Of a DNA stretch of 43,947 nucleotides, positions 1,970-43,892 are shown one piece after another. The notes under the pieces are model-generated. The model saw nothing but the letters and a program-made list of their open reading frames with translations, had not been told where the DNA came from and searched no databases. Numbering within the stretch: the first letter of the stretch is position 1; every line of letters starts with the position of its first letter. The position numbers and the translations under genes are program-made. The stretch is from a phage, in the sequence record PZ671982.1; one strand, 5' to 3'.

Positions 1970-3490
1970 ATGACCGTTAACGTTGACAACCAGCACCCGC
2001 TCTATGCGCGCATCGCGCCAGAGTGGAAAATGATCCGTGACTGCGTAGCAGGGGAGCGCGCCGTGAAGGCGTGCGGGCCATTGTACCTGCCACACCCAGC
2101 CAGCGGCGACACCACCGACCCGAAATCGCGTGCGCGCTATAAGGCATATAAGCAACGTGCTGTCTTCCTGAACGCCACCGCCCGCACACTGAATGCCCTG
2201 TTAGGCGTGGCCTTCGCCAAACCGGTGAGTATGGACCTTTCCGGGGCAATGGCTGACCTGATTGATGACGTAGACGGCAGCGGGATGCCGCTGGCGCAAC
2301 TCCTGCGCGGCGCTATGTCGGAAGTGCTGCAATCGGGCCGCGCTGGCTTTATGGTGGACTACGACCGCCAGGCGCATTTTGACGAACTGGGTAACGTAGT
2401 GCCGCAGACCGCCGCTGAAATGGCGGCACACCGCCCGCTTATCCGCCTGTATACGGCTGAACAGATCATCAACTGGCGGCAGACACACGGGGTCGACACG
2501 CTAATCGTGCTGAAGGAGACGGACGAAATCAGCACCGAAGACCCGGACGACTTCGCAAACCACGAGGTAACCATCTGGACCGAGCTTCGCATGATTGACG
2601 GCAAGGCACACGCCCGCCGCTGGTTTTACAACGCTGACACGTCCGAGGTGCAAATGGACTTGCCGCGGGGATTCACCCGCACCGACCTTGTACCATTGGT
2701 GGATGCTTCCGGTAATGCGCTTACGCAACTGCCTTTCTGTTGGTGTGGCGCGGTGGATAACAATGCAACACCCGATGCCGCACCGCTGGCGGATATCGCG
2801 TCCATCAACATTAAGCACTACAACGCCGAAGCCGACGTCGCAGAGATTGCGCACATCGTGGGCCAGCCTACGCTCATTACAACCGGTCTGACCCAATCAT
2901 GGGCTGATAAAAACCTGAAGGGCGGCATTGCGCTCGGGGCAACTAAGGGCGTTATCCTGGGCCAGAATATGGACGCTAAACTTCTTCAGGCGGAGGAGCG
3001 CAACCTGTCTGTTGCCCTATGTGAGCGCCGCGAATTGCAAATGGCTAAACTGGGCGCTGCCCTGGTTGAGAAGGGGACCGCACCTAAGACGGCAACCGAA
3101 GCAGCCTACGATGCGCAGACTGATAACAGTATCCTGTCACTGATTGCCGGTAACGTTGAGAAGGCTTTCAACCGTGCGCTGCAAATCGTAAAGCTGTTCA
3201 CGGGCGACACCGCTGATCAACGCGTAACGCTGAACAAGTTCTACACCGAAATCACGGTTGACGCACAGCTTATGACCGCAATGATGGCGGGTGTGCAGAC
3301 TGGCACGGTCCGTCTGGCGGACTTTATCAAGTGGATGATGGCCCAGGGCGTCATTGATGACTCGCAAACCGTCGAGCAGGTGGAAGACGAACTGCGAAAT
3401 CAGAATCCATTACCTCAAATGTCCCCGGATGCGGTAGAATCTACCGAAGAAGACCCGGACAAGGTAGCGGACAATGGCGAAGACAATTAA
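1970..3490 (+). CDS. portal protein
   Basis: 506 aa ORF immediately after terminase, acidic C-terminus, RBS AAGGAAA upstream; synteny terminase-portal-MuF. Confidence 0.75.
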   Translation: MTVNVDNQHPLYARIAPEWKMIRDCVAGERAVKACGPLYLPHPASGDTTDPKSRARYKAYKQRAVFLNATARTLNALLGVAFAKPVSMDLSGAMADLIDDVDGSGMPLAQLLRGAMSEVLQSGRAGFMVDYDRQAHFDELGNVVPQTAAEMAAHRPLIRLYTAEQIINWRQTHGVDTLIVLKETDEISTEDPDDFANHEVTIWTELRMIDGKAHARRWFYNADTSEVQMDLPRGFTRTDLVPLVDASGNALTQLPFCWCGAVDNNATPDAAPLADIASINIKHYNAEADVAEIAHIVGQPTLITTGLTQSWADKNLKGGIALGATKGVILGQNMDAKLLQAEERNLSVALCERRELQMAKLGAALVEKGTAPKTATEAAYDAQTDNSILSLIAGNVEKAFNRALQIVKLFTGDTADQRVTLNKFYTEITVDAQLMTAMMAGVQTGTVRLADFIKWMMAQGVIDDSQTVEQVEDELRNQNPLPQMSPDAVESTEEDPDKVADNGEDN

Positions 3491-4577
3491 TCAATATATG
3501 GCGGATCGATTGATTCGCCGACACATCTTCACCCAGCGCCTGAGTAATGACCAGGCGCGAAGGGTGCTGTCCATGTGGGAGAAGTTCCGGCCCACTTTAC
3601 TGGGTAAGTTGACCGAGTTGCTTGATGGCAAATCGTCAATGAACAACAAGGCACTTTCCACCCTGCTAACGCAACTCGATAAGACAGTTAAAGCAGAATT
3701 GCGCACCGAGTTTAAGTTGTTGGCTGAAAGCCTTCAGGAGTTTGCCGACACCGAGGCCGATTATCTCACCGACACATTAACGGCAGCGATCCAGCCGGTG
3801 GTCGCCGTACCTGCGGTCGAGGTGGTGGGCGTAGTGACCGGTGCGCAGATCGCAGCGACGGCTATGAAAAACCCGTTCCAGGGTAATACGATGACGCAAT
3901 GGCCCGACTCACTTTCCGAGTGGACCAGGACGCAGATCGGGAATCAGGTGCGCGCTGGATTCATCCAGGGCAAGCCAACGATGGAAATTATAGCGGACGT
4001 GAGGCGCGCGCTCGGCGGTCGTAGTGCGCAAGCTATCTCAAGCGTTGTTAAGTCCGCAGTCAACCACTATGCAGCGACGGCCCGCGAACTAATGGTGAAA
4101 GCAAATGACGATATTCTCGAAGGTCGCCAGTGGTTATCTACATTGGACACGCATACTTCTCCCATGTGCCAGCTACGCGATCGCCTGTTTTATCCGGTTG
4201 ATGTTACTCCCAACACCAAAGGAAAGCGCGGCGGGAAAGTGGTGGCTGGATCACAATATGGCGCTGGTCCGGGCAAGTTGCATTATTGTTGCCGGTCGAC
4301 GGAGACGTGGAAGGTTAAAGGCATGGAAGATTGGCCCAGTGGTAAACGTCCGGCACTGAAGGCTGACGCGGGTCGATTGCTGAGTGAGCAGGTTGACGCG
4401 CAGACTGATTTCTTCTCATGGGTGCAGCGCCAGCCGCGCCATATCCTGGAAGAATTATATGGCGTGCAACGCGCCGACCAGATTATGCGCGGCGTGAAAG
4501 TGCCGAAGATGTTTACCGATTCTGGCGAACTGATGACTATTGCGAAGCTTAAAAACCGGGGGTTATGGCGTGATTAA
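3474..4577 (+). CDS. head morphogenesis protein (MuF / SPP1 gp7-like)
   Basis: 367 aa, overlaps portal stop; position and size typical of minor head protein after portal. Confidence 0.55.
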   Translation: MAKTINQYMADRLIRRHIFTQRLSNDQARRVLSMWEKFRPTLLGKLTELLDGKSSMNNKALSTLLTQLDKTVKAELRTEFKLLAESLQEFADTEADYLTDTLTAAIQPVVAVPAVEVVGVVTGAQIAATAMKNPFQGNTMTQWPDSLSEWTRTQIGNQVRAGFIQGKPTMEIIADVRRALGGRSAQAISSVVKSAVNHYAATARELMVKANDDILEGRQWLSTLDTHTSPMCQLRDRLFYPVDVTPNTKGKRGGKVVAGSQYGAGPGKLHYCCRSTETWKVKGMEDWPSGKRPALKADAGRLLSEQVDAQTDFFSWVQRQPRHILEELYGVQRADQIMRGVKVPKMFTDSGELMTIAKLKNRGLWRD

Positions 4578-4899
4578 ATATGCGGCTATTGGACTGGTTA
4601 TCGGTCTGGCGGTGGGATTCTGGCTAGGTGACTCCTATCGCGCTGGCGTAGTGGCGGAGGCGGCGCAAGAAGCGCAAGCCAAAGCCCAACGGCAGCAAAC
4701 TAAAGTTGTTGAGCGCTCCGTGCAGGCCGAACAGGCCCGCGACGTGGAATACCGGACTATCACGAAAGAGGTTGTAAAATATGTTACGCGCCCTAACCGC
4801 CCTGATTGTAGTTTTGATGCTGAGCGCGTGCGGATCAAGCAACGTGCCGTTGATGCCGCCAACGGAGTCGGCACTGCGACCGCCGTGCAAGTTCGATAA
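4570..4899 (+). CDS. i-spanin (Rz-like), probable GTG start
   Basis: N-terminal TMD IKYAAIGLVIGLAVGFWLG followed by Ala/Gln/Glu-rich coiled-coil-like region; GGGGG RBS 7 nt before GTG 4570; contains embedded o-spanin gene in another frame. Confidence 0.5.
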   Translation: MIKYAAIGLVIGLAVGFWLGDSYRAGVVAEAAQEAQAKAQRQQTKVVERSVQAEQARDVEYRTITKEVVKYVTRPNRPDCSFDAERVRIKQRAVDAANGVGTATAVQVR

Positions 4900-5011
4900 C
4901 CCGTCTGCGGACCCCGACGAGGATTTGATGATTGACGTGAAAAATATGGAATGCGGGGCTAAGCTAAGGGCGCAGGTGCTGGAGTTGCAGCAAATAATTA
5001 AGGGGCCGTAA
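4781..5011 (+). CDS. o-spanin (Rz1-like outer-membrane lipoprotein)
   Basis: 76 aa; signal peptide with lipobox LMLSAC, Pro-rich mature part; starts inside the Rz-like ORF in a different frame and extends past it (overlapped spanin architecture). Confidence 0.6.
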   Translation: MLRALTALIVVLMLSACGSSNVPLMPPTESALRPPCKFDNPSADPDEDLMIDVKNMECGAKLRAQVLELQQIIKGP

Positions 5012-5022
5012 TGGCCCCTTTT
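5002..5022 (+). terminator. rho-independent terminator (GGGGCC-gtaat-GGCCCC + T run)
   Basis: Perfect 6-bp GC stem, 5-nt loop, TTTT immediately 3'. Confidence 0.6.
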
Positions 5023-5077
5023 CGTCAGTCTCATTTTTGTGTCCTCGTTGTTGGGGCTTTCGCCCCGTTTGGTTTAG

Positions 5078-5485
5078 TTAAAGTGCTTCAAGAATCTCGT
5101 AAAACTTATTCGCCAGCGCCTGGCGACGTTCGAATTTCTCAGTGATAACCAATTCAGGGCGGTTAAATCTCTTTGCGTGTATGTTCCAATTGTGGATTTC
5201 CGTTTCCATTATTTTCTTACGGTTATAGTCGGTGTTTTTGATGCTAAATTCCTTGATAGCGTTGTTAAGAAAATCAGTCATATACTCAATGTCGGATATC
5301 GTAACTTCGAACGTGCGGGCTTCTATTCCGCTATTGGTGCGAAGTACGACGACGCCGCCGTGGTAGGTGTCGACTACCATATACTTGTAAGTCACCCCGT
5401 CCCACTCCGGATCGAAAGGGCGACCAAATACGTCGTCGGCTTTCCAGACTTTCAGGTACGGTGTTTCTTTGATTAATGTTGGCAT
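5078..5485 (-). CDS. hypothetical protein, antisense AT-rich island gene
   Basis: 135 aa from ATG 5485 (RBS AAGGAAA); uninterrupted ORF in visibly AT-richer DNA, opposite strand to flanking head genes; own promoter-like element upstream. Confidence 0.6.
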   Translation of the reverse strand: MPTLIKETPYLKVWKADDVFGRPFDPEWDGVTYKYMVVDTYHGGVVVLRTNSGIEARTFEVTISDIEYMTDFLNNAIKEFSIKNTDYNRKKIMETEIHNWNIHAKRFNRPELVITEKFERRQALANKFYEILEAL

Positions 5486-5520
5486 CTTGTTTTCCTTCAT
5501 ATCTCTGTTGGTGTGCAACC

Positions 5521-5550
5521 AATATAGCGCAACCAACTCCAGCGAGGCAA
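5521..5550 (-). promoter_or_regulatory. sigma70-like promoter for 5078..5485 (TTGCCT-18-TATATT) containing TTGGTTGCA motif
   Basis: On - strand: TTGCCT, 18-nt spacer, TATATT, then GGTTGCACACCAACA identical to the element upstream of 38927. Confidence 0.4.
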
Positions 5551-5557
5551 GCGAATT

Positions 5558-5585
5558 TTGCGATTATTTTTATCGCTGATAATAT
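5558..5585 (+). promoter_or_regulatory. sigma70-like promoter for scaffold/capsid operon (TTGCGA-16-TAATAT)
   Basis: Hexamers read directly; back-to-back with the - strand promoter. Confidence 0.4.
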
Positions 5586-5639
5586 TAAGGCGTGAAGTCA
5601 AGCGGGTGGCCCGCTTTGCCACAATCCCAGGGGGATAGC

Positions 5640-6344
5640 ATGAAACTTACTAAAGCAGAATATGACGCGTTGCCGGAAGGTATGAAGGCGCTTTTTGTTG
5701 CCGATGGTGACGGGTATAAATCAACGTTCATGACCGCCGAAGAAGTGCAGGCGGAGATCAAGGGTCTGAAAGACAACAACGCGAAGCTGGTGAGCGAGAA
5801 GAAAGCAGAAGCCGAACGCCGCGCCGAAGCTGAGCGCCTTGCGAAAGAGAAAGAGGAAGCCGCCGCGCGCAAAAATGGCGACCTAGAAGCGATCGATAAG
5901 TCCTGGAAAGATAAGTTCGCAAAACATGAAGCGGACACATCGGGGAAAATCGAAGCCTACCGCAAGCAGATTCATGACCTAACCATCGGCAGCGCTGCCA
6001 AAGACCTGGCGTCGAAGCTGTTCGGTAAGAATGCCGGCATCATGCAGCGTCACGTTATGGACCGCCTGGCGCTGGAAGACGGCGAAGACGGCAGCCTGAA
6101 GGTGCGAGTATTAAAGGATGGCAAACCGTCCGCTCTGACGATGGACGAACTGGAAAAAGAGTTCCGTAGTAACGCAGATTTCGCATCTGTCCTGGCTGGC
6201 ACGCCAGCCGGTGGTGCGCCGAGCAAACCGACACAGGTCGTCGAAGATGTGAAGTCGAAAATCACTATGGGCCATAGCTTCGGTATCACTGACTTGACGA
6301 AACAGGCAGGGGATATCATTGCTAAAATGGGCGACGACGAGTAA
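5640..6344 (+). CDS. scaffolding protein (putative)
   Basis: Start at ATG 5640 (RBS GGGGGA); highly charged K/E/A-rich coiled-coil-like sequence immediately upstream of major capsid gene. Confidence 0.6.
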   Translation: MKLTKAEYDALPEGMKALFVADGDGYKSTFMTAEEVQAEIKGLKDNNAKLVSEKKAEAERRAEAERLAKEKEEAAARKNGDLEAIDKSWKDKFAKHEADTSGKIEAYRKQIHDLTIGSAAKDLASKLFGKNAGIMQRHVMDRLALEDGEDGSLKVRVLKDGKPSALTMDELEKEFRSNADFASVLAGTPAGGAPSKPTQVVEDVKSKITMGHSFGITDLTKQAGDIIAKMGDDE

Positions 6345-6351
6345 GCAGGCC

Positions 6352-6373
6352 GCCCGCTTTCGCGGGCGATTTT
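6352..6373 (+). terminator. hairpin GCCCGC-tttc-GCGGGC followed by GATTTTG (weak terminator)
   Basis: Seen in sequence after scaffold stop. Confidence 0.35.
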
Positions 6374-6441
6374 GCGAGCGCGTAAATCTAAGGTAACATT
6401 AACGGCACTGAGCGAATGCTCACAACTCAAAGGATTCTAAT

Positions 6442-7542
6442 ATGTCATTAACAGTGTTCCAGCGTAAACTCGTCACCGCGGTTACGCAAATGATCCCCGA
6501 CAATCTGAACGTGTTCAACGCTGCCGCTAATGGCGCTGTTGTTCTCGGCACCGGTGAAGTGCTGAAGGACGTTGTAGAAAAAATGTCCGTAGGCTTGATC
6601 GCCAACCTCGTTACCGACCGTAACGCCTATGCCCCCGTCGGTACTCCGGCAACCGCAAAAGTGCTGGCGCGTATGCTGACCAACTCGGTTAACCTTTCCG
6701 CGAAAGTGGGTCCGGTAGCAATCACTAAGGCCATGATGGCTAAGATCGAAACCAACGTTAACAGCGTTGCGGCTGAGATTGCGGCACAGGCTACTCAAGC
6801 GATTATGCTGCATTACCTCAAAGCTGGTATCGGTGCGGGCAAAGCCGCTATTGAAAGCAACACAGCGGCAAACTACACCCAACCTGCTCGCGTCGATGGC
6901 GTTGGCGGTCGTACCTTCCCGACCCTGGCAGACTTCCCGCTGGCAGCTTCTAAGTTCGGCGATCAGGCGTCTTTAATTAAATCCTGGTTTATGGACGGCG
7001 TTACCTGGGCAAACTTCATTGCTTACCAGGCGCTTCCATCTGCCGAGCAGGTATTCGCGATCGGCGATCTGCAGGTAATGGGCGATGGCCTGGGCCGCCG
7101 TTTCATTATCTCCGATGCCGCTGCCGATGCAATGGGTGCTGGTAAAATGCTGGGTCTGGTCCCTGGCGCGGTTGCAGTTACCACCAATGGCCTTGATATG
7201 CTGGCGCAAGAAAAAGGCGGTAACGAGAACATTGAGCGCTGGTGGCAGGGCGAGTTCGACTTCAACGTGGCTGTTAAAGGCTATCGTCTGAAGGCGTCCG
7301 CTCGTACTCCGATCGAAGGTGTTCGCTCGTTCAAACTGGACGATATCACCACTTCCGCTAACTGGGAGCTGGACCAGGGCCAGGTAGACAACGCACCGGC
7401 AACCGTGCAGGACGTGGGCGCTGTTGGTGATGGCGATACTAAAGGCCGTCGTAAGACCCAGGCCGCACAGGCAGTGCCTACCCGTCACATCAAGGAAACG
7501 GCGGGCGTACTGGTTACTCTGACGGCGACCACAGCGTCCTAA
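6442..7542 (+). CDS. major capsid protein
   Basis: 366 aa, RBS AAAGGA, follows scaffold, followed by strong terminator; composition typical of HK97-fold capsid proteins. Confidence 0.7.
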   Translation: MSLTVFQRKLVTAVTQMIPDNLNVFNAAANGAVVLGTGEVLKDVVEKMSVGLIANLVTDRNAYAPVGTPATAKVLARMLTNSVNLSAKVGPVAITKAMMAKIETNVNSVAAEIAAQATQAIMLHYLKAGIGAGKAAIESNTAANYTQPARVDGVGGRTFPTLADFPLAASKFGDQASLIKSWFMDGVTWANFIAYQALPSAEQVFAIGDLQVMGDGLGRRFIISDAAADAMGAGKMLGLVPGAVAVTTNGLDMLAQEKGGNENIERWWQGEFDFNVAVKGYRLKASARTPIEGVRSFKLDDITTSANWELDQGQVDNAPATVQDVGAVGDGDTKGRRKTQAAQAVPTRHIKETAGVLVTLTATTAS

Positions 7543-20390: not shown

Positions 20391-21321
20391 ACATGTTGGG
20401 AAGGTACGGCAGCAGAGTTGGGATCGTAACGTCGGGTCTGTTGCCGATTTCGTACCTTACAATTCGTGAGCCAGTTCCCGACCTTACATATCCGCCGCTC
20501 ATAACCACGCCTTTGTTTCTTAGTTCCTTGTAGGCGGGTATAGCCCTTGTATTGAACCCACACCTTAGTATTGGGAAGTAGGAGTCACCAATATACTGAT
20601 TGCTACCCGACAGACTTATAAACCCAGACACAATAAGTGGTCTGGTAACTGTTGAAAGTGTACAGGCGCCTTTGTGGTTAAATATGTTTAACCCCGGCCC
20701 CGGCACGGGCGCAACCATCTGGAAAATAACCAAATCCATAGTAACACTTCCGGGTGTGTGCCCGGTATCATTTGTGTTTATGTTTGTGCATATCAACCGA
20801 TTAACACCGTCGTACTCAACTGAAACACCAGAATTATCCCACCTGCCGAACGGTATGCCGTATATTGGAAGGGTGTAACTATCATGGAATGATATAGTTT
20901 GAGCAAATTTGCAGACAAGCAACCTGTCAGTTGTGGTTATCGATGTGAAATCCGTGCTGTCGGCAACGTAAAGCCCCTGCCCTGTCGATGACCTAAGAAC
21001 CTCAACTACAGTCCCTGAAAACTGCGTTACGCGGTCTGGATAGCCGTTCTCATAGCCAATAGATATTGTTCCGCTGGATTCTGTTGAAGAAAAGCCCTTT
21101 ATATAATAAACCTCAACACCACGATCTAGTTCGAAGGAGTATGCGCCATTGTTCGGCAGAAGAAACCTTGAAGCCCCTTCATTACCTTGAATAGGGAATG
21201 ACTTGCTAAACCCGCCACTTGAAACATTGAAGTTCCCCGCAAAATTCAAGGCACGCATACCCGCGGTGATTGTCATCGGGTTGCGTCCGTCATTAAGATC
21301 AATGTAGATACCTTGTGCCAT
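20386..21321 (-). CDS. hypothetical 311-aa Gly/Ser/Thr/Asn-rich protein; candidate receptor-binding protein
   Basis: Long uninterrupted - strand ORF in AT-richer DNA, ATG 21321 overlapping upstream lipoprotein stop (TAATG); no signal peptide; beta-rich composition. Confidence 0.5.
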   Translation of the reverse strand: MAQGIYIDLNDGRNPMTITAGMRALNFAGNFNVSSGGFSKSFPIQGNEGASRFLLPNNGAYSFELDRGVEVYYIKGFSSTESSGTISIGYENGYPDRVTQFSGTVVEVLRSSTGQGLYVADSTDFTSITTTDRLLVCKFAQTISFHDSYTLPIYGIPFGRWDNSGVSVEYDGVNRLICTNINTNDTGHTPGSVTMDLVIFQMVAPVPGPGLNIFNHKGACTLSTVTRPLIVSGFISLSGSNQYIGDSYFPILRCGFNTRAIPAYKELRNKGVVMSGGYVRSGTGSRIVRYEIGNRPDVTIPTLLPYLPNMY

Positions 21322-21551
21322 TAGTTCCACTCCCGAGAGCCATAATCACGAACTGAGCCACCATGCCCTTTAATTCCGTCATAACGAATATCAACTTCAC
21401 CCGCCGGAACAACTACACCGCCTTTCCATTTAGCTACACATACGCCGCTTGCTTGTGTCGCGCACCAACCATCCGGACGCGGGCCAGAAGAGCAACCAAC
21501 AGCCACACCCACAACCACGGCAATGATTGCAGATTTGATTAAAGTTTTCAT
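21321..21551 (-). CDS. small lipoprotein (76 aa), candidate Llp/Cor-type superinfection-exclusion protein
   Basis: ATG 21551 with RBS GGAG; signal peptide with lipobox VAVGC; Cys-containing mature part. Confidence 0.6.
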
Positions 21552-40412: not shown

Positions 40413-40532
40413 TTGTTGGTGCATAACCGCTTTGAAATAGACGGTCGGGTATTTCGCAATTACTTCGTGGCGCGTGCATGGGCGCGCCATATTGGCAAAC
40501 CGGAAGGGGCAATTAGATGTTACACGATGTGA
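40392..40532 (+). CDS. small hypothetical protein (46 aa, GTG start)
   Basis: RBS GGAGG 8 nt before GTG 40392; alternative to the longer 40329 start. Confidence 0.25.
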   Translation: MSAVIRDLLVHNRFEIDGRVFRNYFVARAWARHIGKPEGAIRCYTM

Positions 40533-40804
40533 TTTATTGGTTTGGTTTGATCTGCGGGCGGTGCCTGCTTACCGCGGTGCTGTTGGGCAGCCTGATGTTC
40601 GTCGTATGGCCTGCAGTGGAAGCCGCCAGCATTACCCGCATGACGTTCGAGATCTACAAGCGCCGTGGAATAACGGAGCACCCGACAAGGCTTCGGATGT
40701 GGTGGCTGTGGTATCGGGATATGATAGGCGGTCGAACATTCGAAGCCGTCCGATCATCCGGGTGGGAGTGGAAAGGCGTCGGCAAGTGGTCAATTTTCGA
40801 TTAA
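40517..40804 (+). CDS. small membrane protein (95 aa)
   Basis: RBS GAAGGGG; N-terminal hydrophobic stretch WFGLICGRCLLTAVLLGSLMFVVW; immediately upstream of holin. Confidence 0.45.
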   Translation: MLHDVIYWFGLICGRCLLTAVLLGSLMFVVWPAVEAASITRMTFEIYKRRGITEHPTRLRMWWLWYRDMIGGRTFEAVRSSGWEWKGVGKWSIFD

Positions 40805-40856: not shown

Positions 40857-41147
40857 ATGGATAAGCTAAACGAGTGGTTATTCGCCCTGGCATGTCTGGC
40901 GGGTGGCTTCGTAGGAGCACGCATTCATGGCGAGGCTACGAAAGGGCCGCTAAACTTCGTTTTGTATGTCGTAGTTGGCTTCCTGTGTGCCATATTTGGC
41001 GCACCGGCTATTGCCGAGTGGGCTGGTTTGTCGGGTGAGCGCACTGTCGCCGGTTTGGGCTTCGTAACTGCGATCTTCTGGATGCCAATCGCCGACCGGA
41101 TCAGGGAGACTATTGCGTCGTTCCGACTTCCGGGGGGTGCAAAATGA
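40857..41147 (+). CDS. holin (putative, 3 predicted TMDs)
   Basis: 96 aa with three hydrophobic segments; directly upstream of second membrane protein and endolysin. Confidence 0.55.
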   Translation: MDKLNEWLFALACLAGGFVGARIHGEATKGPLNFVLYVVVGFLCAIFGAPAIAEWAGLSGERTVAGLGFVTAIFWMPIADRIRETIASFRLPGGAK

Positions 41148-41389
41148 TTATCTCCGTCCTGTTGTTTGTTATCATAGGGGCTTCGTCCCTGTTTAACGTG
41201 TATGCGCCGTCCGTCCAGGATGGCATTTTCGGTCGGGTGCTGTATCTGCTAACGGCGATGATCTGCGTTATTGGATTGTTGCAAACGGGAGACGTATCAG
41301 ACACCACCTGGACCGCGTTAATCTGGCTGTTTGCATTGCGCACCTTGCGTAATGCGGTTTTAAATGGGGTAAAACATGCGATTCAGTGA
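41144..41389 (+). CDS. second holin-like membrane protein (antiholin/pinholin candidate)
   Basis: 81 aa, hydrophobic segments IISVLLFVIIGASSLF and LYLLTAMICVIGLL; overlaps both neighbours. Confidence 0.45.
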   Translation: MIISVLLFVIIGASSLFNVYAPSVQDGIFGRVLYLLTAMICVIGLLQTGDVSDTTWTALIWLFALRTLRNAVLNGVKHAIQ

Positions 41390-41867
41390 CAACGGTCTAA
41401 GATTCACGGCAGCATGGGAGGCTTTTAGCCCGGTGCCGTATTTCGCGACCAAGAAAGAGCAGGCCCGCGGCCTGTACACCTGGGGTTATGGTCATACCGG
41501 CACTAATCCGCCTCGAAGCATTACCCGCGAGGAAGCGCTGGCACTACTCAAGCGCGATGTGGCGTATGCCGAGGACTGGGTGAACAAATACGCCCATAAG
41601 AGCATTAATCAGGCGCAATTCGATGCGCTGGTGGACCTGGTAATCAATGCCGGTCCTGGTCCGATCGTACCGGATGACGTCGCGAATGATTTCGATGACG
41701 CGGTGCGACTGGGAGACTGGGCGAAGGTCCGTGCTATCCTGCCGCAGTTCCGCAAGCAAGGCGGGGAAGTGCTTAAGGGTCTGGTGCGCCGTGCAATCGG
41801 CAGACAGGCTTTATTTGATGGTAAGCAGTGGGACGTTGCCGAGCGAATCGGTCGTAACGCAGCATAA
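41376..41867 (+). CDS. endolysin (phage lysozyme-like)
   Basis: N-terminal SDNGLRFTAAWEAFSPVPY...WGYGHTG resembles the catalytic region of T4/P22-type lysozymes; follows holins. Confidence 0.65.
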   Translation: MRFSDNGLRFTAAWEAFSPVPYFATKKEQARGLYTWGYGHTGTNPPRSITREEALALLKRDVAYAEDWVNKYAHKSINQAQFDALVDLVINAGPGPIVPDDVANDFDDAVRLGDWAKVRAILPQFRKQGGEVLKGLVRRAIGRQALFDGKQWDVAERIGRNAA

Positions 41868-42285: not shown

Positions 42286-42293
42286 GCCAACAA

Positions 42294-42316
42294 GCCCGGA
42301 TAATACCGGGCTTTTT
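42294..42316 (+). terminator. rho-independent terminator (GCCCGG-ataata-CCGGGC + TTTTT)
   Basis: Seen in sequence. Confidence 0.6.
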
Positions 42317-43851: not shown

Positions 43852-43861
43852 ACCGCATAGC

Positions 43862-43892
43862 CTGCCGATTTGGTGGGCTTTTTTGTGCCTGT
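43862..43892 (+). terminator. weak terminator-like hairpin followed by CTTTTTTG
   Basis: Imperfect stem GCCTGCC / GGTGGGC followed by T run. Confidence 0.25.

Follow-up and report, generated by a model that had tools for sequence, protein, structure and literature searches.

The predicted overlapped spanin pair of an HK578-like Dhillonvirus lies in the head-gene region, apart from holin and endolysin

Positions 4570 to 5011 very probably code for a two-component spanin of the overlapped 'Jersey' family, carried by an HK578-like Dhillonvirus. The window, that is, the whole stretch of 43,947 nucleotides that was analysed (PZ671982.1), is a complete Dhillonvirus genome of an HK578-like Escherichia coli phage and is about 94 to 95% identical to Escherichia phage HK578 (95.4% over positions 3400 to 6500, and 94% over 94% of the first 25 kb). 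An earlier note had placed an overlapped spanin pair in this region; both open reading frames are present there and match PHROG spanin families. The gene pair and its split layout are already annotated and published for HK578-like phages, and the finding is correct but ordinary.

The i-spanin gene (4570..4899, + strand) starts with GTG and encodes a predicted type II inner-membrane protein of 109 residues with a periplasmic helical domain. Its start is overlapped by 8 nt by the end of the preceding MuF-like gene, whose stop codon TAA occupies 4575-4577, in the form GTGATTAA. A Shine-Dalgarno-like GGGGG, read from the sequence, lies 7 nt upstream of the GTG (4558..4562, + strand); across 16 Dhillonvirus sequences it is conserved, either in this form or as AAGGGG. 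All 16 also have the GTG start that the earlier note had proposed, in overlap with the preceding gene, and RefSeq uses this start for HK578 gp05. The longest open reading frame would begin at a TTG at 4540, which was rejected: L017 and L020 lack it, while the GTG and its Shine-Dalgarno sequence are invariant.

The proposed N-terminal membrane anchor was recovered as residues 4-20 of the i-spanin (YAAIGLVIGLAVGFWLG; 4579..4629, + strand), the sole hydrophobic stretch of the protein, with a maximal Kyte-Doolittle 17-residue mean of 1.95. The segment is helical in a single-sequence AlphaFold2 model, which predicts a helix at 5-72, a break at 73-83 and a second helix at 84-97. Owing to its low confidence (pLDDT 58.6), the model was used for secondary structure only, and the coiled coil named in the earlier note stays putative, as does a geometry that spans the periplasm. 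The protein has the properties expected of an i-spanin, being small, with one transmembrane domain at the N-terminus and a largely helical periplasmic domain, the helices being predicted at low confidence. It contains one periplasmic cysteine, C80 (nt 4807-4809), conserved in all relatives examined. The periplasmic parts of both proteins are short, about 88 residues in the i-spanin and about 59 in the o-spanin.

The o-spanin gene (4781..5011, + strand) starts with ATG and encodes a predicted outer-membrane lipoprotein of 76 residues in the +1 frame. It overlaps the i-spanin gene by 119 nt and runs 112 nt past its stop codon, which is one of the arrangements known for spanin genes, the others being an o-spanin gene contained within the i-spanin gene or following right behind it. 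The Shine-Dalgarno sequence AAGAGG (4766..4771, + strand) precedes the ATG by 9 nt and lies inside a conserved i-spanin motif, T-K-E-V-V-K-Y; the distant homologues L025-L027 have the same layout, with AAAGAGG or AAGGAGG ahead of the ATG. An upstream TTG start seen in some relatives (MLNMLRAL...) was rejected, as it is absent from the window and comes without a spaced Shine-Dalgarno sequence.

The N-terminus of the o-spanin, MLRALTALIVVLMLSAC followed by GSS, fits the PROSITE-type lipobox rule, and the lipoprotein signal peptide (4781..4831, + strand) ends in the lipobox L-S-A-C with the cysteine at position 17. Glycine occupies the +2 position, where aspartate would cause retention in the inner membrane. 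Eight prolines fall within the 60 residues from Cys17 on, seven of them within the first 30. The earlier description of an out-of-frame, proline-rich lipoprotein frame with the lipobox LSAC is thus accurate. Two further cysteines, Cys36 (nt 4886-4888) and Cys58 (nt 4952-4954), are conserved in all relatives examined, and both spanins therefore offer periplasmic cysteines for homotypic disulfides (C80 in the i-spanin, C36 and C58 in the o-spanin).

Searches with PHROG profile HMMs assigned the i-spanin to phrog_2536, 'Rz-like spanin' (E 4.5e-37), and the o-spanin to phrog_5672 (E 2.4e-26) and phrog_1267 (E 1.6e-12). In RefSeq, HK578 gp05 is an 'Rz-like spanin' with coordinates identical to those of the i-spanin, and gp05 and gp06 of SSL-2009a carry the same name at homologous coordinates, gp06 being the o-spanin homologue. 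Kongari et al. 2018 (PMC6139136) place HK578, EP23, JL1, SSL-2009a and SO-1 in the overlapped 'Jersey' i-/o-spanin families, in which the i-spanin has two helices and the o-spanin two constant cysteines at a distance of 22 residues. The spanins of the window are 95-99% identical to the HK578, JL1 and EK99P-1 proteins listed in that family (PMC6139136), C36 and C58 agree with its cysteine spacing, and by homology both proteins belong to it and to PHROGs 2536 and 5672. The HK578 and SSL-2009a spanins (EP23-to-SO-1 subfamily) share with the window pair the coordinates, the GTG start, the 8-nt MuF overlap, the 119-nt overlap of the two frames, the lipobox, the cysteines and the terminator. They differ by few substitutions, e.g., P27 of the window o-spanin, which is leucine in most relatives. 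In some relatives the i-spanin has 102 residues and the overlap is 98 nt.

The pair had been called 'Rz/Rz1-type', a label that holds for its architecture but not for its sequence. No Pfam-A family matched either spanin at E <= 0.01, the lambda Rz and Rz1 models included, and NCBIfam scans of both returned nothing meaningful. These results give no sequence link to lambda Rz or Rz1. Like the window pair, lambda Rz/Rz1 combines a type II inner-membrane protein with an outer-membrane lipoprotein read in the +1 frame of the same DNA, and has periplasmic cysteines and a proline-rich o-spanin. In lambda, however, the whole of Rz1 lies inside Rz, both follow S and R directly, and Rz, with 153 residues, is longer than the window i-spanin. 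The two-component spanin and its overlapped class were reportedly defined by Summer et al. in 2007. LysB/LysC of P2 have the overlapped layout, with an o-spanin frame that opens within the i-spanin gene and ends past it; these proteins are, however, of a different sequence family and lie within the P2 lysis cassette. The overlapped class is defined in Kongari et al. 2018 (PMC6139136), where the T4 spanins are described as unlinked. PseT.3/PseT.2 of T4 differ from the window pair in family and in their separated, non-overlapping architecture, and all three lysis functions of T4 are scattered.

A lipobox alone is no better than chance, as scanning all six frames of the window turned up about ten lipobox-like open reading frames, which mostly fall within other genes or antisense to them. 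On these grounds, only the i-spanin-like frame might be real, the +1-frame lipoprotein being an untranslated chance frame and the outer membrane being disrupted by another factor. The frame is, moreover, unannotated in several GenBank records of relatives, and the HK578 record gives only gp05. We regard this explanation as extremely improbable. The frame matches the two o-spanin HMM families named above, it occurs in 654 phage records, and it is intact with lipobox, Shine-Dalgarno sequence and ATG in 16 of 16 Dhillonvirus sequences as well as in distant homologues. Intact homologous spanin pairs were found in about 650 phage records, and across the 16 Dhillonvirus sequences the transmembrane domain, lipobox, Shine-Dalgarno sites and start codons of the pair are conserved.

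Codon-position diversity among the 16 Dhillonvirus sequences follows the i frame in the part specific to the i-spanin and the o frame in the part specific to the o-spanin, and is reduced in the overlap. In the o-only part (4900-5008), diversity is dominated by third positions of the o frame (0.22 vs 0.09 and 0.03), which also argues against a chance frame. The scarcity of changes affecting both proteins at once (9 of 39, vs 48% of all possible changes; binomial p = 0.0014, a value that ignores the relatedness of the sequences) points the same way. As read from these aligned sequences, the diversity shows purifying selection in both frames, in keeping with a translated i-/o-spanin pair.

The remaining lysis genes are found at the other end of the window, as had been claimed. 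A holin of 96 residues (40857..41147, + strand; phrog_2359 holin, E 8.5e-32) is followed by a second holin or antiholin of 81 residues (41144..41389, + strand; phrog_2508 holin, E 3.2e-27) and by a lysozyme-like endolysin of 163 residues that is devoid of an N-terminal hydrophobic segment (41376..41867, + strand; phrog_7, E 2.9e-36). An Ig-domain gene comes after the endolysin. From the endolysin stop to the i-spanin start the distance is 6649 bp across the joined genome ends, and the separation of 6-7 kb given earlier holds on that reckoning only. In contrast with a canonical contiguous cassette, the spanins do not adjoin the endolysin and holin, and neither another i-/o-spanin pair, nor a u-spanin, nor a credible lipoprotein was found beside the endolysin; the genome has no other spanin candidate. 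The lysis cassette is therefore split. A lipobox frame at 21321..21551 (- strand), homologous to HK578 gp24, is not a spanin but a lipoprotein adjoining a membrane protein, and the remaining lipobox frames of the window, out of frame or antisense within known genes, were likewise set aside.

Since the pair stands among packaging and head genes, 6.6 kb away from holin and endolysin, it might also serve a purpose other than lysis, as a membrane protein and lipoprotein module, e.g., for superinfection exclusion or morphogenesis. The phage does have another small lipoprotein beside a membrane protein, the exclusion-lipoprotein type at 21321..21551, and a search of the literature found no experiment on the HK578-like phage of the window or on any member of the 'Jersey' spanin family; spanin function in the Dhillonvirus pair is assigned from architecture and family. 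Such a module is nevertheless very improbable. In L024, L026 and Aeromonas phage pIS4-A, homologues of both proteins from the same PHROGs form part of canonical lysis cassettes, immediately after holin and endolysin, and T4 is known to have unlinked spanins. Phages that infect Gram-negative bacteria and lyse them by a canonical holin and endolysin, moreover, normally require a spanin, for which this genome offers no other candidate.

Gene order in related phages, compared through a phage collection and IMG/VR loci, shows how the split is distributed. In the Jerseyvirus and Kagunavirus phages (SETP3 gp07/gp08, K1G gp06/gp07, Schulenberg), the PHROG families and the overlapped architecture are those of the window, and in SETP3 and K1G the spanins likewise stand after the MuF block and before the scaffold gene, with holin, antiholin and endolysin elsewhere. 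Their o-spanins are about 40-47% identical to that of the window, while the i-spanins are longer (about 129 residues) and only the C-terminal third aligns. These genomes also differ in having a Hoc-like decoration gene between MuF and the spanins and no reverse-strand accessory gene before the scaffold gene. For phage Schulenberg, it has been stated outright that the spanins lie apart from holin and endolysin (PMC6763661). The same layout is evident from the gene numbers of Jerseyvirus SeF1, whose spanin and holin PHROGs are the same as in the window (PMC9409062), and from those of Dhillonvirus vB_EcoS_P78 (PMC12677095). No literature coupling Jerseyvirinae with Rz1 was found. Among more distant homologues of the spanin family, in contrast, L024 has a canonical cassette of holin-holin-endolysin-i/o-spanin (phrog_2536, E 8.1e-43), and a similar cassette is present in L026 and pIS4-A. 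The separation of the spanins is a lineage trait common to Dhillonvirus, Jerseyvirus and Kagunavirus.

The spanin pair lies between the MuF-like head morphogenesis gene (3474..4577, + strand; phrog_241, E 6.6e-115), which has the same coordinates as HK578 gp04, and the scaffold gene, in agreement with the earlier placement. A terminator hairpin, AAGGGGCC-GTAAT-GGCCCCTT followed by a T-run (5000..5024), could act in both directions and holds the o-spanin stop codon (TAA, 5009-5011) in its loop. HK578 records annotate terminators at 4992-5018 (-) and 5002-5022 (+), and in relatives the stem is kept through changes such as AAGGGGCC to CGGGGGCC. A second terminator-like hairpin, TGGGGC-TTTC-GCCCCG followed by TTTGGTTT (5052..5067, + strand), corresponds to the HK578 annotation 5052-5070. 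Next comes a reverse-strand accessory frame (5078..5536, - strand) that is not part of the spanin system. It matched no PHROG, Pfam or NCBIfam family, and no more than 14 phage records contain a homologue; the slot between the spanins and the scaffold gene is variable, and other genes fill it in other Dhillonviruses.

Transcription units were assessed from pattern scans, whose overall counts were not above those of shuffled sequence. The sigma-70 scans gave no promoter candidate upstream of the spanins and no convincing one between endolysin and spanins, and identified no late promoter. The pair ends the terS-terL-portal-MuF block, and its co-transcription with that upstream block is plausible. 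Judging from the two hairpins at 5000-5024 and 5052-5067 and the reverse-strand frame behind them, scaffold and capsid are probably on a transcript separate from the spanins. The claim that the spanins are co-transcribed with head genes is therefore plausible for the terS-terL-portal-MuF genes and probably fails for scaffold and capsid.

The spanins could also share one long late transcript with holin and endolysin through antitermination as in lambda; the cassette would then be divided on the genome yet regulated as one. Every gene between 38.7 kb and 5011, counted across the genome end, is on the + strand, which together with the lack of a convincing promoter along this path would suit such a transcript, and the lambda late operon reads through many terminators. 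Between endolysin and terS, however, stand two strong + strand hairpins that are conserved in HK578, one after the Ig-domain gene (42292..42313), where the loop and flanks alone differ, and one just upstream of the small terminase gene (43859..43879). No antiterminator gene was identified. We consider a long transcript possible but somewhat unlikely. It would be a refinement of the main explanation and does not contradict it.

Beyond the frames, signals, family membership, conservation and genomic position given directly by the analysis, the action of the pair can be proposed from established spanin biology (lambda Rz/Rz1; Kongari et al. 2018, PMC6139136). The i-spanin would insert in the inner membrane through its N-terminal helix, with the helical domain in the periplasm, and the o-spanin would be lipidated at Cys17 and sorted to the outer membrane. 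Binding through their C-terminal parts would give a complex spanning the periplasm, stabilised by homotypic disulfides through C80 of the i-spanin and C36 and C58 of the o-spanin. These complexes would act last: when the holins (40857..41389) have triggered and the peptidoglycan has been cleared away by the endolysin (41376..41867), they would fuse the two membranes, or disrupt them, so that lysis is completed. As the last cistron group of the terS-terL-portal-MuF block, the pair would be expressed by coupling of i-spanin translation to MuF through the GTGATTAA overlap and by translation of the o-spanin from the Shine-Dalgarno sequence and ATG embedded in the i-spanin motif TKEVVKY. Transcription would stop at the hairpin holding the o-spanin stop codon.

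The conserved placement may further be read as a regulatory design, in which the 3' end of the terminase-portal-MuF block sets the dosage and timing of the spanins by head-gene expression, independently of the holin-endolysin unit, with the split state arising from a contiguous arrangement, such as L024, L026 and pIS4-A have, before becoming fixed in Dhillonvirus and Guernseyvirinae. This proposal is speculative and we hold it to be unlikely. If it were true, the MuF coupling, the ribosome-binding site in TKEVVKY and the stop-codon-bearing terminator would serve it.

The main value of the finding is correct annotation, with little importance beyond, and it opens no new question, since spanin biology is already on record for the lineage, and with it the overlapped architecture and the unlinked position. 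The o-spanin frame is missing or 'hypothetical' in many Dhillonvirus records, HK578 included, so that its recognition by eye serves as a useful check on annotation. Lysis genes, as the arrangement also illustrates, can lie apart, which is relevant to the engineering or deletion of lysis functions in therapeutic siphophages of E. coli and Salmonella.

Spanin anatomy is present where and as an earlier note had read it: a membrane segment, an out-of-frame ORF, the lipobox LSAC and a Pro-rich part. The i-spanin ORF (4570..4899, + strand) encodes 109 aa from a GTG that lies 7 nt 3' of a Shine-Dalgarno-like GGGGG (4558-4562, +) and overlaps, as GTGATTAA, the TAA that ends the MuF-like head morphogenesis gene (3474..4577, +; phrog_241, E 6.6e-115). 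Its product matches the PHROG HMM phrog_2536, “Rz-like spanin” (E 4.5e-37), and carries a single hydrophobic segment at residues 4-20 (Kyte-Doolittle 17-residue mean of 1.95). The stretch after it is polar, with abundant Ala, Gln and Glu. AlphaFold2, run on the single sequence, gave a low-confidence model (mean pLDDT 58.6) that places the membrane segment and alpha-1 in one long helix (residues 5-72), followed by a break at 73-83 (TRPNRPDCSFD, including Cys80) and a second helix at 84-97. This agrees with the two helices and short linker described by Kongari et al. for the EP23-to-SO-1 subfamily (PMC6139136). The label “coiled-coil” would be plausible. Four Dhillonvirus loci from IMG/VR (L015, L018, L019 and L020; position 3001..3309) have an i-spanin of 102 rather than 109 aa that ends ...NRVGL or ...NGIGN and overlaps the o-spanin by 98 nt versus 119 nt, as fits the same authors' account of an extreme C-terminus that is variable and unstructured.

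The o-spanin ORF (4781..5011, +; 76 aa) lies in the +1 frame, with its ATG 9 nt 3' of AAGAGG. It shares 119 nt with the i-spanin ORF and extends 112 nt past its end. The product starts MLRALTALIVVLMLSAC|GSS, where Arg3, Cys17 and the Gly at +2 satisfy a PROSITE-type lipobox rule. From Cys17 onward, 8 of 60 residues are Pro (7 within the first 30), and further cysteines occur at positions 36 and 58, matching the two constant cysteines 22 residues apart of the “Jersey” o-spanin (PMC6139136). Both PHROG HMM matches, phrog_5672 (E 2.4e-26) and phrog_1267 (E 1.6e-12), are “Rz-like spanin.”

About 10 ORFs in a six-frame scan of the window carry something like a lipobox, mostly inside known genes in another frame or on the antisense strand, so the lipobox alone is no better than chance. 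What decides the matter is the HMM matches, the spread of homologs, the conserved signals and the codon-position diversity. Hits by tblastn to the o-spanin came from 654 phage records and those to the i-spanin from 660, belonging to Dhillonvirus, Jerseyvirus, Kagunavirus and some Klebsiella, Serratia and Enterobacter phages. Conservation was followed in a gap-free alignment of 16 distinct Dhillonvirus sequences (the window and 15 IMG/VR loci). All keep the i-spanin GTG with its 8-nt MuF overlap, as the earlier note had proposed for the start, together with the Shine-Dalgarno sites, the o-spanin ATG and lipobox (LSAC, LTAC or MSAC) and all three periplasmic cysteines. An in-frame TTG at 4540, upstream of the i-spanin GTG, was rejected as a start; unlike the GTG, it is lost among these sequences.

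Nucleotide diversity tracks the i frame in the i-only part (0.078/0.038/0.220 at codon positions 1/2/3) and the o frame in the o-only part (0.092/0.029/0.224). Overall diversity is 0.079 in the overlap, versus 0.112 and 0.116 outside it. Within the overlap, just 9 of the 39 distinct substitutions alter both proteins, versus 48% of possible single changes (binomial p = 0.0014, in a test that ignores the relatedness of the sequences). Codon-position diversity and this deficit indicate purifying selection on both frames and, as far as sequence can tell, argue against the untranslated lipoprotein ORF that the earlier note had considered. The i-spanin motif T-K-E-V-V-K-Y encodes the o-spanin Shine-Dalgarno site and ATG (AAAGAGGTTGTAAAATATG, 4761..4783). 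No other stretch of the i-spanin family is as well conserved, even in the distant loci L025-L027 (34-47% identical), where the o-spanin likewise begins at the end of the motif. Some of the “protein” conservation of this motif may therefore be owed to the signal that initiates translation of the overlapping gene. The o-spanin signal peptide and proline-rich linker, which tolerate change better than the rest of that protein, lie over the conserved C-terminal third of the i-spanin.

The segment at 3400-6500 is 95.4% identical to Escherichia phage HK578 across its whole length and matches 159 phage records, nearly all Dhillonvirus siphophages of E. coli or Shigella. Over the first 25 kb, identity to HK578 is 94% across 94% of the length, with no closer record. 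The 43,947-bp window is collinear with the 43,741-bp HK578 record and both begin at the small-terminase gene, which together with the identity indicates the complete genome of an HK578-like Dhillonvirus. RefSeq lists HK578 gp05, at identical coordinates (4570..4899), and SSL-2009a gp05 and gp06 as “Rz-like spanin,” and “i-spanin” and “o-spanin” are annotated in Dhillonviruses of the BASEL collection. Kongari et al. (2018, PMC6139136) placed EP23, HK578, JL1, SSL-2009a and SO-1 in the overlapped “Jersey” i- and o-spanin families. Neither protein matched a model in a Pfam scan; the pair resembles lambda Rz/Rz1 in its predicted working and is not a sequence-level member of the Rz/Rz1 families. 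The pair is thus real and was correctly interpreted in the earlier note, with a minor correction on transcription; its protein family, gene architecture and split genomic arrangement are all already known.

The split lysis cassette was likewise recovered. Two holin-family proteins (40857..41147, +, phrog_2359, E 8.5e-32; 41144..41389, +, phrog_2508, E 3.2e-27) precede a lysozyme-type endolysin (41376..41867, +; phrog_7, E 2.9e-36) that has no N-terminal hydrophobic segment. Directly 3' of it lies an Ig-domain gene, not the spanins, and neither a second i-/o-spanin pair nor a candidate u-spanin turned up anywhere in the genome. Across the joined genome ends, 6649 bp separate the endolysin stop from the i-spanin start, with all intervening genes on the + strand. 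Immediately 5' of the holins, 40517..40804 (+) encodes a protein of 95 aa, hydrophobic in its N-terminal region (phrog_2531, unknown function, E 1.1e-35), which could be a further lysis membrane component or regulator, or unrelated. The only other credible lipoprotein of the genome (21321..21551, -; 76 aa, lipobox VGC; phrog_4281, unknown function) is homologous to HK578 gp24, “similar to putative phage lipoprotein of phage RTP.” HK578 gp24 adjoins the membrane-protein gene gp23 between tail fibre genes, a neighbor expected here by collinearity, and the lipoprotein is probably of superinfection-exclusion type, not a spanin.

The unlinked position of the spanins has already been published, for the related phage Schulenberg (PMC6763661), and in T4 it is the textbook situation (PMC6139136). 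In Jerseyvirus SETP3 and Kagunavirus K1G the pair lies in the corresponding position, with MuF (plus a Hoc-like gene) ahead of it and the scaffold gene behind it. Separation is also seen in Jerseyvirus SeF1 (spanins Gp_009/010, phrog_2536/5672; holins and endolysin Gp_063-065, phrog_2359/2508; PMC9409062) and Dhillonvirus vB_EcoS_P78 (holins, genes 31/32; endolysin, gene 33; spanin, gene 40; PMC12677095), and it characterizes the Dhillonvirus, Jerseyvirus and Kagunavirus group. The same spanin PHROGs also have more distant members, and these lie in ordinary cassettes. The IMG/VR locus L024 has two holins (phrog_198, phrog_217), an endolysin (phrog_181), the i-spanin (phrog_2536, E 8.1e-43) and the o-spanin (phrog_5672) in that order; in Aeromonas phage pIS4-A, endolysin, holin and spanin lie together just 3' of portal and MuF. 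Locus L026, with roles read from translations, has an endolysin-like ORF, a small membrane-protein ORF, an opposite-strand ORF and an embedded i-/o-spanin pair. The spanin module thus combines with varied holins and endolysins. The opposite-strand ORF of L026 (2348..2890, -), between the small membrane-protein ORF read as a holin and the i-spanin, is from its translation a candidate HNH-type homing endonuclease; if this is right, it recalls T5 and Shivani, where the spanin genes have a homing endonuclease between them (Kongari et al., PMC6139136).

Co-transcription with the head genes, as claimed in the earlier note, would hold in part. Pattern scans found no terminator-like or promoter-like site between MuF and the spanins. 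They did find a hairpin, AAGGGGCC-GTAAT-GGCCCCTT, at 5000-5020 (to 5024 including the T-run), with the o-spanin stop TAA (5009-5011) in its loop and the last o-spanin codons (K-G-P) as its 5' arm, and a second one 3' of the o-spanin (5052-5067). The terminator annotations of the HK578 depositors fall at exactly the same places, in both directions. In relatives the arm is AAGGGGCC or CGGGGGCC (K/R-G-P) with the pairing kept, e.g., CGGGGGCC...GGCCCCC. Beyond these hairpins come a reverse-strand ORF (5078..5536), the scaffold gene (5592/5640..6344) and the capsid gene. Between endolysin and small terminase there are another two strong terminator-like hairpins (42292-42313 and 43859-43879, both +). 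Both are conserved in HK578, with changes only in loops or flanks or improving a pair; the HK578 record leaves them without annotation. Overall counts in the scans were not above those of shuffled sequence, and the reading in units leans on the quality and conservation of individual hairpins. Most economically, the late genes read as three units: holins-endolysin-Ig gene, a two-gene unit, and terS-terL-portal-MuF-spanins. A possible alternative is one late transcript under antitermination. With three units, the spanins would probably be co-transcribed with portal and MuF and probably not with scaffold and capsid, from which the hairpins and the reverse-strand ORF separate them.

That reverse-strand ORF (152 aa, or 140 aa from the ATG used in HK578 gp06) had no match in PHROG, Pfam or NCBIfam, and no more than 14 phage records gave a tblastn match to it (7 from Dhillonvirus, 6 from Serratia phages and 1 from an Erwinia phage). 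The slot is filled by different reverse-strand genes in other Dhillonviruses (SSL-2009a gp07/gp08). For phages SMA8 and SMS22, the gene numbering in a paper on Tmn defence puts nmad5 immediately ahead of the scaffold gene, so this position has the look of an accessory-gene hotspot. That the placement of the spanins is itself a functional regulatory design seems unlikely.
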